This document shows, piece by piece, positions 5,361-27,413 of a stretch of 33,086 nt of DNA. Position numbers and translations under genes: made by a program. The stretch covers positions 1 to 33,086 of IMG/VR virus record IMGVR_UViG_3300021120_000002. The stretch is one strand, 5' to 3'. Position 1 is the stretch's first letter, and the number at the start of each line of letters is the position of its first letter. Under the pieces are notes generated by a model. The model was not told the origin of the DNA. It worked only from the letters and a program-made list of their open reading frames with translations, and did no database searches. The stretch is from a virus. Taxonomy: Duplodnaviria; Caudoviricetes.

Positions 5361-5634
5361 ACCAGTAGCGTAAATTATAGAATCTGACGAAGAATTTAAA
5401 AATGGTAAAAATTATCCGACTTTGGATTGGTATGTAAAAGATATTTTAAATCTTCCAATAGGAACAAAGCTCTATACCCATCCAGTAAAAGAACTAACAG
5501 ATGATGACATATTAAAATTAGCCAAAAAATCAGGTTTTGTTTTATACAAAAACAATATCGACTGGAGTAGCAATTATGATAAAGAAATAAAGCAATTTGC
5601 TAGAGCAATACTAAAAAGGGCTTCTGAAAAATGA
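5350..5634 (+). pseudogene. accessory gene with in-frame TAA at codon 8
   Basis: MNNEPVA*IIESDEEF...LYTHPVKELTDDDI...FARAILKRASEK; ATG at 5350 is in frame with ORF 5422..5634. Confidence 0.55.
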
Positions 5635-5927
5635 AAGATTTGTTTGAATATAAAGATGGCGAACTTTATTGGAAAGTTAGTCGTGGTCGGCAAAAGGCTG
5701 GCAGTTTGGCTGGTGCAACCATTACAGACGGCTATAAACAAGTTTCTATTAACAAAAAACGATATTTAGTGCATAGAATAATTTTTCAAATGTTTCATGG
5801 TTATATGCCTGAAGCACCTTTAGAAATTGACCATATCAATCGAATTAGACATGACAATAGAATCGAAAATTTAAGGGTTTTAAGTCATGCTGAAAACATG
5901 AAACATCGAAAGGCAAGTGAGAAATGA
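5631..5927 (+). CDS. HNH endonuclease (free-standing, short)
   Basis: YLVHRIIF...EIDHINRIRHDNRIENLR motif. Confidence 0.85.
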   Translation: MKDLFEYKDGELYWKVSRGRQKAGSLAGATITDGYKQVSINKKRYLVHRIIFQMFHGYMPEAPLEIDHINRIRHDNRIENLRVLSHAENMKHRKASEK

Positions 5928-16240: not shown

Positions 16241-16849
16241 TTATTCGCTTTCCTTGTATGAATCACCACGTAACAAGGTTTTCATACTAGCACGACTTAA
16301 TTCAAATTTTTCCATTAATTGTAAAACAGTCATACCATTTTTCCTAAGTAATCTAGCTTCTCTAGCTTGATCCATTGTAAGTTTGCAACGTGGGCCAGAA
16401 TCTTGTGGAAATCTTTTTTGTCTGCCTTTGGCAACTTTATCAGCCATATTATCAGCATGAGTGCCAACCCATAAATGTTTTGGATTACAGCAAGAAGGAT
16501 TGTCGCAAGTGTGTAAAAGAAATCCTGAATTATCTGTAAATTTGGGCGCACTAAGGTTAATCGTGTTTGGATAAGCAAGCGAATAAATGACTCTATGAGC
16601 ATAGTAGCCTTTGTCATTAATCCAAGTCCTTCCATAACCATCATGATTTATAAAACCTTTCCAATTCCAACATTCATCTTTGCTACGTTTATCAACTTTG
16701 CTCCAAAGCACTTTAGGAGTGTTTGCTGGTTTTCCTGGCGCACCTATTTCTCTGTTTACTTTTCTTGCGTATGCTTCGTTATCTTTTAATCTTTTTATTG
16801 CTCTGTTTACTTTTAATTTTTCTGCTTTTAATTCTGCTAGTGTTTTCAT
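16241..16849 (-). CDS. free-standing HNH homing endonuclease
   Basis: ECWNWKG, YYAHRVIY, LHTCDNPSCCNPKHLWVGTHADNMAD, C-terminal HTH-like segment. Confidence 0.9.
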   Translation of the reverse strand: MKTLAELKAEKLKVNRAIKRLKDNEAYARKVNREIGAPGKPANTPKVLWSKVDKRSKDECWNWKGFINHDGYGRTWINDKGYYAHRVIYSLAYPNTINLSAPKFTDNSGFLLHTCDNPSCCNPKHLWVGTHADNMADKVAKGRQKRFPQDSGPRCKLTMDQAREARLLRKNGMTVLQLMEKFELSRASMKTLLRGDSYKESE

Positions 16850-25654: not shown

Positions 25655-27413
25655 TTAAGCTGCAACACGGCAAGCGAGTTCAGGATACAAGTTAGCCCAA
25701 CCATACAGAACGTCTAAACGAGTAGGAATAGAGTCGTTGTTAATGGTGTATTGACGAACTACACGCATTGACAGACCGATTTCCTTGTCGCTTGCACGAC
25801 CAGCAAAGTGAACACCCTCTGGCAACTCAAGGTCGGCTACTGCTAGAGTAAACGCATTGCGGTGCATGATGATGTTTTGTGGGGAAACAGTACCAGAGCT
25901 ATTAAAGAAGCTAACAGCAGCAGTTGCTGAAGTAGAAGGGATAGATACGTTCTGGAACTGACCAGCAGTAATAACCGCAGGGCTTACGTTAACAGTAATC
26001 GTGCTACCTGAACCACTAACAGCAGTATTAACAACAAAGTTGCGTAGCTTGTTTGAACCATAAGCCTGACGATTTTGTGGGTTAACTGCATAAACGCCAG
26101 CGATTGTGAATGTATCGCCTTGGTTTAATGAAACACCATTGGTCAATGTCAAAGTGATGTTTGAGCTTGATGCCCAACCACTTGTCAAGAAACCAGTAGC
26201 AGTTGTAGTTGCTACAGTAGCTGTACCAGCAAAAGAACCGAATGTATGTGCTACAACGTTCTGATCCATCTTCCAGTTCATACCAGCAGAGTCACGACCC
26301 ATCAAGCCTTTACGATACTGTTCGCCAATAGCTTCTTGTGGCACAAATAAGCCTTTCAAGCTGTCAACGATAGTAGCGGAAGTAAACGGCTCAACGATAC
26401 ATGATCTACGACCATCACGTGGTGCGCCTTCAGAGTCAAGGTAAGCAGCAGCAGTCAAATAGGTGATCAAACCTGTTGGTGGAGTGCCAGCAGTACCGAC
26501 AATATTGGCGGTGTTGTTAGCGGCCTGTAACGTACCGTCACGGTCGATTTTGTTCGCAATTGCAGCACATTCTGTTACTTCGGCTTTCGCCTACTGACCA
26601 TTTCTGGCGGGGCAACTTCTTCGAATCACCCTCTAGAACTTTGTTTACATCTAGTTGCGTTCTAGTTCAGACTATCGCATCCCATTTCAGGGCCATCCCA
26701 CTTAGTCGTTCAGGCTGCACAGAGTTTCCTCTTGCTTGCCCCTTGTTGTCCTCTACAGGAGTTCCAAGTCAATCAGGGACAGTTTTCCTAGCTCTTAGTG
26801 AACTAGGCCGCTACTGTTAACGGCTGGCTTCAATACACGATCAGAGAACATATCTAAAGACAATGCCAAATCTTGTGTTGTGAACTGTGTGTCAACGTGG
26901 AACTGTGTTGACAAAGTTACAGGCACAGAAGTTTCATTGAAATCTTCTACGTTCAGGGCTGGCCCTGTAGTTCCAATAAAGCGTCCAGGTTTCATTCTGT
27001 TACTTTCAGTCTTTCGACTTACTGACCATTTTCATGGCGGTGCAACTTCTTCGAATCGCACTCTAGGACTTCTTTAGTTATATCCTAGTTCAGACTATCG
27101 CATCCCTTTCGGGGCTTCTCACTTAGTCGTTCAGGCTGCTTTCGCTTGCCCCTTGTTACCCACTTCTGGGACTCCAAGTCAATCAGAGAAACTTTTTCGT
27201 CCGCACACCTAACTCTTTTTACGGACGTTTACTGTGTTACCGATCTTACCACCTCAAATATAAGATCCACAGTAAAAACTGAGGCAGGCTTTATACCACA
27301 GCGAATTGATCGTCATAGTTACGATCTACTTCAGATGTAAATGTTAATTCGTTTTCTAAGACCATCAACGCTTCGTTAGTGATCTTGGAAATGGTTAGCA
27401 AATTATTTGCCAT
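25655..27413 (-). CDS. major capsid protein (P22 coat-like), four exons: 27413-27295, 27254-27221, 26992-26820, 26567-25655; 412 aa spliced
   Basis: Joined exons (119+34+173+913 = 1239 nt) give one open frame: MANNLLTISKITNEALMVLENEL...DDQFAVV-GGKIGNTVNVR-KPGRFIG...VLKPAV-AAIANKID...RLDVLYGW; AAAGGA RBS. Confidence 0.9.
26568..26819 (-). mobile_element. group I intron B, 252 nt, no ORF
   Basis: P1 GCCGU/GCGGC with U-G at the 5' splice site; P10 CAGUA/UGCUG; P2 CCUAG/CUAGG; P3 GUCCC/GGGAU; P7 GACUA/UAGUC; ends AACAGAAUG; removal restores the frame. Confidence 0.9.
26993..27220 (-). mobile_element. group I intron A, 228 nt, no ORF
   Basis: P1 CGUCCGU/GCGGACG with U-G at the 5' splice site; P10 AGGU/ACCU; P3 UUCUC/GAGAA; P7 GACUA/UAGUC; ends AACAGAAUG; removal restores VNVRKPGRF. 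Confidence 0.9.
27255..27294 (-). other. 40-nt core-less group I-like mini-intron
   Basis: AUAAAGCCUGCCUCAGUUUUUACUGUGGAUCUUAUAUUUG; follows U, ends in G; GCCUGCCUCAGU is complementary to the ligated junction GCUGUGGU|AGGU; carries an in-frame UAA and shifts the frame. Confidence 0.7.

Follow-up and report, generated by a model that had tools for sequence, protein, structure and literature searches.

A short element without a catalytic core interrupts the capsid gene of the window, the window being the entire 33,086-nt virus record that was analysed. This core-less, intron-like element is real and conserved among relatives, and its removal from the capsid mRNA is probably carried out by the core of intron A, the full intron that lies just downstream and to which predicted base pairs tether it. 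The evidence consists of compensatory changes between the element and both of its exons, its strict linkage to intron A and one joined contig from an RNA run. The record originates from freshwater metagenomes, is estimated to be 94% complete and contains P22-like portal, terminase and coat genes. A host look-up by genome matching returned mixed metagenome bins and Burkholderiales relatives at 49-55% identity.

Capsid gene organization

The capsid gene is divided by three inserts, the mini-intron, intron A and intron B (Table 1), the removal of which gives a single open frame. The joined frame agrees with that of the intact relative L003 (120 residues of L003 were compared with the first 140 of the frame). 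A preliminary description made from the window had the capsid frame halting at FAVV-UAA and resuming 40 nt later as GGKIGNTVNVR, with an insert preceded by U and ending in G. Both features were confirmed on the minus strand (27294-27255), where the sequence across the insert reads TTC GCT GTG GT/ATAAAGCC...ATTTG/A GGT GGT AAG (slashes mark the insert ends). An assembly artefact, considered in the same description, was excluded by a contig of DNA run X3 that spans 26898-27311 with 0 differences; X3 is not listed among the window's sources and, as the insert is unchanged in this independent run, mis-assembly is ruled out. Contigs spanning the unspliced mini-intron are also contained in DNA runs X7 and X8.

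Table 1. Features of the interrupted capsid gene in the window
Feature	Position	Strand	Remarks
Capsid exon 1 (MANN...FAV-V)	27295..27413	-	Last 8 nt form the 5' strand of mini-intron P1
Mini-intron, core-less, 40 nt	27255..27294	-	In-frame UAA at 27293-27291; ends UUG, terminal G at 27255
Mini-intron internal guide	27278..27289	-	P1 with exon 1 (U27295.G27285 at splice site); P10 with exon 2 +1 to +4
Tether helix PX, 5' strand	27260..27276	-	3' splice site inside the PX loop
Capsid exon 2, 34 nt (GGKIGNTVNVR)	27221..27254	-	Holds the P10 strand, the PX 3' strand and then directly the 5' strand of intron A P1
Intron A, ORF-less group I-type ribozyme, 228 nt, without P2; proposed helper	26993..27220	-	
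Intron A elements	Guide 27204-27198; P3 27191-27186 / 27120-27115; P7 27130-27124 / 27097-27092	-	
Capsid exon 3	26820..26992	-	
Intron B, same family as A, 252 nt, with P2-like hairpin	26568..26819	-	
Capsid exon 4; P22 coat protein family PF11651	25655..26567	-	E 9.8e-26

Guide sequence and tether helix of the mini-intron

The guide had been described as pairing with 11 of 12 positions of the ligated junction, with a wobble on the 5' splice site; this pairing was reproduced (27289-27278, with U27295.G27285 at the site); the sole mismatch is a U.U at -4. The same number of guide pairs was reached by 3,804 of 200,000 shuffles of the window insert (1.9%), so that the evidence from the single sequence is modest and the comparative evidence carries the case. 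A second helix, PX, which had been overlooked in the preliminary description, is formed between 27276-27268 and exon 2 at 27228-27236. Its extension (27267-27260 with 27242-27249) is present only in variants of 40-41 nt.

As in group I introns, the mini-intron ends in G and its guide forms P10 with the 3' exon, and a catalytic core P3-P9 of its own with a P7 G site is missing. There is indeed no space for P3-P9, as had been stated: the 32-41 nt of the insert are consumed by P1 and PX, and no Rfam match was obtained. In the 32-34-nt variants the insert is filled by P1, at most three linker U, PX and the final four bases, so that no G site fits. Splicing by the mini-intron alone with the help of exon structure, as claimed for the 63-75-nt rRNA introns of Phialophora, is therefore considered extremely unlikely. 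P1, P10 and a helix that joins the intron middle to the 3' exon occur in those introns as well, but they are drawn with a P7 (PMC3160393), for which the mini-intron has no room. Autonomy would also not predict the strict linkage to intron A described below.

Introns A and B

Introns A and B are ORF-less and have a common core. In the consensus fold of 25 variants, covarying helices lie where P3-P6 and P9 are expected in intron A, and two-sided changes were found in 21 of 62 pairs across the element. Besides these covarying core helices, intron A has the invariant strands GACUA and UAGUC, which we take to be the conserved P7 strands on the basis of the group I consensus, with G27128-C27093 as the predicted G-site pair. 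An Rfam search of the window gave no group I match up to E = 1 and left A and B unclassified. The invariant CUGAUU that follows P3 in intron A (27186-27181) is complementary to an invariant GGUCAG in its 3' domain (about 27028-27023); the two may form a long-range pair characteristic of the family.

In sibling introns elsewhere in the capsid gene, P1 is accompanied by a hairpin and an A-rich linker (20 contexts inspected by eye), and it is the hairpin that is missing in A. The idea that A is without P2 because of the mini-intron was weakened by L319 and L380, which are P2-less with no mini-intron upstream. Both are closely related to intron A, have an almost identical P1 and interrupt other phage genes, where the frame is open.

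About ten sites in the capsid gene of relatives are taken up by this ORF-less family, which Rfam does not detect (family-bearing genes L012, L025, L110, L164, L166, L183, L186, L236, L443 and L484), and some of these genes, such as L186, contain up to four full introns plus the mini-intron. In the GenBank phage MW202674.1 (L484), which has a sibling intron at a different site (about 1757-2023), the annotation consists of two coat pieces and a hypothetical ORF over the intron. In Roseobacter phage CRP-118 (OR420741.1, L485) the ribonucleotide reductase gene is interrupted by an unannotated gap at about 1183-1582 that bears a weak resemblance to intron B (E 6e-3).

Covariation of P1, P10 and PX

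26 distinct variants of the mini-intron were found and 25 were used, one with an N being dropped. Covariation of the guide with the exons, which the preliminary description had named as a check, was observed for both exons: all 11 guide pairs are kept in 25/25 variants, with compensatory changes in P1 and in P10. At P1 position -6 the pairs are U-A (15), A-U (9) and G-C (1), and at -2 they are G-C (24) and A-U (1); in one lineage a Val to Ile change at -2 is tracked by the guide (G-C to A-U). P10 is paired from +1 to +4 in 25/25 variants, and at +4 each of the four exon bases is matched (U.G 14, U-A 3, A-U 3, G-C 4, C-G 1). The guide-matched changes at -6 and at P10 +4 fall on synonymous codon positions. 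P10 is the most telling pairing because in it the guide pairs with the start of exon 2, which is sensible only for ligation. All listed mini-introns from the search by the intron A 3' end terminate in TTG.

In PX, exon 2 positions 19-27 are matched by the 3' half of the insert, again with two-sided changes, for example at position 25 (U-A 16, A-U 5, C-G 3, G-C 1), and the helix ends directly against P1 of intron A in 25/25 variants. The PX register in the pairing table is the best of four offsets. In a formal count, which omits the +4 pair and includes two misaligned PX rows, 98.5% of 598 cells were paired and 20 cells were changed on both sides; 0 of 500 shuffles were as high, and slid controls were 35-47% paired. 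The structure was drawn from the same sequences that were scored for pairing. The variants are related, and as 15 of the 20 inner branches in their poorly resolved tree are open, the counts refer to variants and not to independent changes.

The same alignments bear on the reading that the insert is never spliced and that ribosomes hop over it with the assistance of the hairpins. Bypass of the T4 gene 60 type uses matched take-off and landing codons. The stop does follow the last sense codon and lie inside a stem-loop in 21/21 junction variants, but the resumed frame is preceded by UGA in all 21 and never by the take-off codon, which occurs in the landing frame in only one of them; matched codons are thus lacking at the site. 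Bypass, which would also leave the P10 covariation with the ligated joint and the joined RNA contig (see below) unexplained, is judged very unlikely, and excision of the insert at the RNA level is preferred.

Predicted folding

In local folds the P1 of the mini-intron has a probability of at least 0.83 in 23 of 24 variants and in long folds of at least 0.74 in 21 of 24; variant L147 fails in both. In the long fold of the window itself this P1 falls to 0.16-0.31 because exon 3 competes. The region of the mini-intron 5' splice site (27301-27288) can pair with exon 3 at 26965-26982, which beats P1 in the model. According to the model folds, such competition by exon 3 is not seen in most relatives.

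Linkage of the mini-intron to intron A

Inserts of 32, 33, 34, 40 and 41 nt are found at the same capsid site in relatives, and these lengths span all three reading frames. Selection by exon 4 gave 80 capsid relatives, 78 with the site in view, of which two have both the mini-intron and intron A and 76 have neither. A search with the intron A 3' end, made without regard to the insert, returned 50 matches, four of them non-capsid and three cut short; the mini-intron is carried by 43/43 of the capsid genes found in this way on IMG/VR contigs with the site in view. Intron A is seen in 29 of the 30 contigs found via the mini-intron, the other contig ending 5 nt past exon 2. Among 265 scorable loci (repeats included) there was no mini-intron with an uninterrupted exon 3 and no capsid intron A without a mini-intron. 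The expectation that such inserts occur only alongside a full intron was thus borne out by the alignment of related coat genes. No mini-intron was found elsewhere in the capsid among the loci compared, in which short gaps occur only between residues 40 and 41. Three records of GenBank phages were matched; no mini-intron was seen in those examined, which include MW202674.1 of the two coat-gene matches (the other being MW202520.1).

Intron A and intron B had both been put forward as the helper. Intron B is variably present among the mini-intron-bearing relatives and missing from many of them, and in L443 it is found without the mini-intron or A. The complete genomes G002 and G006 bear the mini-intron and have one exact core motif each, inside intron A; the motif search detects this intron family only, and G002 also has a one-mismatch match. 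A helper core of this family would therefore have to be that of A. Intron B as a needed helper was ruled out by its absence from many relatives and by these two genomes, and of the two candidates A is supported by linkage. The proposal of a core acting in trans stands, on inference, in so far as the core lies outside the insert; free action is replaced by a predicted tether through the exon 2 helix.

The later exons of the cassette-bearing capsid genes are 71-99% identical to an intact reference, and the near-identical neighbours L003 and L025 (296-299 of 300 nt just upstream) are without the cassette; together these comparisons suggest that the cassette has spread horizontally. Two free-standing HNH endonuclease genes lie in the window at 5631-5927 (+) and 16241-16849 (-), and by collaborative homing their products could spread the ORF-less cassette. 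In the intron-less alleles L463 and L466 the 34 nt of exon 2 equal those of an insert-bearing lineage and the end of exon 1 differs; these alleles are possibly recipients or recombination products.

A lethal remnant, left by deletion of an intron in defective genomes and rescued by co-infection, or a mis-assembly, is scarcely credible. Two narrow patterns gave no full intron at the mini-intron site, which is compatible with a remnant: the 3'-end pattern had four matches, all non-capsid, and the metagenome 5'-end pattern had 115, of which 29 were capsid and all of these had the mini-intron (the metagenome records may overlap those of IMG/VR, and their counts are not additive). The insert is nevertheless present in an independent run, in 43 IMG/VR contigs and in complete genomes. 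With the identity of the later exons to the intact reference and the compensatory changes, this spread contradicts the lethal deletion remnant that the preliminary description had named as a refuting outcome.

Evidence from RNA runs

A 4,943-nt contig from the lake metatranscriptome run X20 is joined exactly at both sites, skipping 40 nt and 228 nt. It has 0 differences from the mini-intron-bearing L086 over 671 nt upstream plus exon 2 (705 nt) and 47 differences over 1,252 nt downstream. The exact 40-nt skip is absent from 3/3 DNA-like runs of the complete joint table, DNA runs X7, X8 and X13, whose joint table is 8 rows short, not being counted as skip controls. The RNA evidence consists of this one contig from one run, in which no contig covers the mini-intron or A, so that neither precursor nor excised intron was seen there.

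Record G001 (L478, L482; 3,018 nt), the molecule type of which is not given, has the same joined allele as the X20 contig at 20/20 listed sites. Among 40 different intron-less junctions, only that of G001 has codons typical of insert-bearing alleles. A search for a DNA record of the exact X20 allele plus introns gave 0 matches, the nearest differing at 12 of 401 nt. The start of G001 near a promoter was unusable as a sign of RNA origin (nine sites compared with 12 expected by chance). The X20 contig fits a spliced mRNA and is counted as support, not proof; together with G001 it could also fit an intron-less phage allele from which both inserts were precisely lost. If G001 is DNA, such an allele exists and the contig proves nothing. 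The junction that was to be sought in metatranscriptomes is thus present as predicted and may belong to an intron-less DNA allele.

Proposed mechanism

In the precursor the order would be P1 of the mini-intron, PX, P1 of intron A, an A-rich linker (AAAAAG) and the core, i.e. two substrate helices for one ribozyme. The core of A would dock P1 of the mini-intron and a guanosine would attack after U27295; P10 would then form, and exon 1 would attack after G27255 and be joined to exon 2. Intron A would be removed by the same core at its own sites in the ordinary way. The conserved UU before the mini-intron terminal G could pair with the GA after P7 in A in a P9.0-like manner. The order of excision may be flexible, since freed A would stay beside PX on the exon 2/exon 3 joint via its guide; if A left first, its terminal G could start the mini-intron reaction, as in trans-excision-splicing (PMC2532722).

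Skipping of exon 2 would shift the frame, and the middle exon must therefore be kept. It is possible for a downstream intron to act on a distal 5' splice site, and in engineered tandem introns differing P1 sequences suppress exon skipping (PMC10136302); the differing P1 sequences of the mini-intron and A may act in the same way. The simplest account of the origin of the mini-intron would be that a full intron upstream lost its core.

We favour, with rather less assurance than excision by A as such, a wider reading in which the mini-intron, exon 2 and A constitute one mobile element. Its single core would excise two segments and keep the exon between them, the freed mini-intron held by PX might provide its terminal G as the nucleophile for the second excision, giving a mini-intron-A fusion RNA, and the element would be self-addicting. 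Loss of A alone would leave the stop codon in the capsid gene, so that A would be indispensable.

Splicing by something other than tethered A, whether a free ribozyme of phage or host, a protein nuclease with a ligase, or A with an essential protein cofactor that performs the recognition, is unlikely. The RNA contig shows removal and not what catalysed it, the linkage to A could partly reflect hitchhiking across 34 nt, and the motif search was limited to one intron family. On the other hand, the U.G pair, the terminal G and the covariation of P10 are the signature of group I splicing, PX abuts P1 of intron A in all 25 variants and no mini-intron was found without A; these points argue for the core of A.

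Significance and comparison with known systems

Natural group I introns are regarded as having a ribozyme of their own. If the excision by A is true, the mini-intron represents a new class of non-autonomous intron, core-less and served by a neighbour. It would be a living model for self-splicing introns splitting into short substrates and a shared catalyst, and a natural step from cis-splicing introns towards the division into substrate and enzyme seen in the spliceosome. It would also provide a route by which an ORF-less intron becomes indispensable, loss of the ribozyme killing the capsid gene, and would show how nature can arrange a single ribozyme to form two joints, the whole unit being about 300 nt. 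In phage annotation such inserts make capsid genes resemble pseudogenes.

A natural core-less group I intron with a helper was not found by searches of full-text literature with few subscription papers; nothing similar appears in the available parts of PMC11878797, PMC6247863 and PMC3562157.

The mini-intron resembles the self-splicing group I introns of phage mRNAs, including those of Twort, and the introns of Coxiella in the U.G pair at the 5' site, the terminal G, the guide that forms P1 and P10, the close spacing of introns around a short exon and the in-frame stop in the P1 loop (PMC10136302). Twort orf142 has three self-splicing introns with short exons, and the Coxiella 23S rRNA gene has two introns around a 34-nt exon (PMC10136302). 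Each of those introns has its own core and cross-talk leads to exon skipping (PMC10136302), whereas here one is without a core and exon 2 needs to be retained for the frame.

The small 'degenerate' PaSSU introns of Phialophora lie in fungal SSU rRNA, measure 63-75 nt, are drawn with a P7, have a terminal U and are claimed to be self-splicing (PMC3160393). The mini-intron, in contrast, has 32-41 nt, a terminal G and no P7-like helix, and belongs to a phage mRNA, where it is linked to a full intron. The group III introns of euglenoid plastids are likewise short and have lost the core of their parent class, but they derive from group II, have a domain VI with a bulged A and are not known to depend on one adjacent helper via an exon (PMC8393795), whereas the ends of the mini-intron follow group I rules. 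In organelle trans-spliced (split) group I introns and twintrons parts also cooperate, or one excision depends on another (PMC8393795). Split introns reconstitute a single complete intron that serves one joint, and in twintrons complete introns are nested (PMC8393795); in the present case a single core would form two joints, with the intervening exon retained.

Engineered systems form a further parallel. Trans-excision-splicing ribozymes do exist, as the preliminary description had it (PMC2532722), and in these and in spliceozymes a group I core removes a core-less segment that ends in G and joins the flanks (PMC2532722, PMC4094466). Those systems are artificial and carry the guide on the ribozyme (PMC2532722, PMC4094466), whereas the present one is natural and carries it on the removed segment, and, unlike in the engineered systems, the proposed core is that of an adjacent intron, which also has to excise itself. 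The arrangement of the mini-intron is new and fits none of the families tested; its chemistry would be the known group I reaction.
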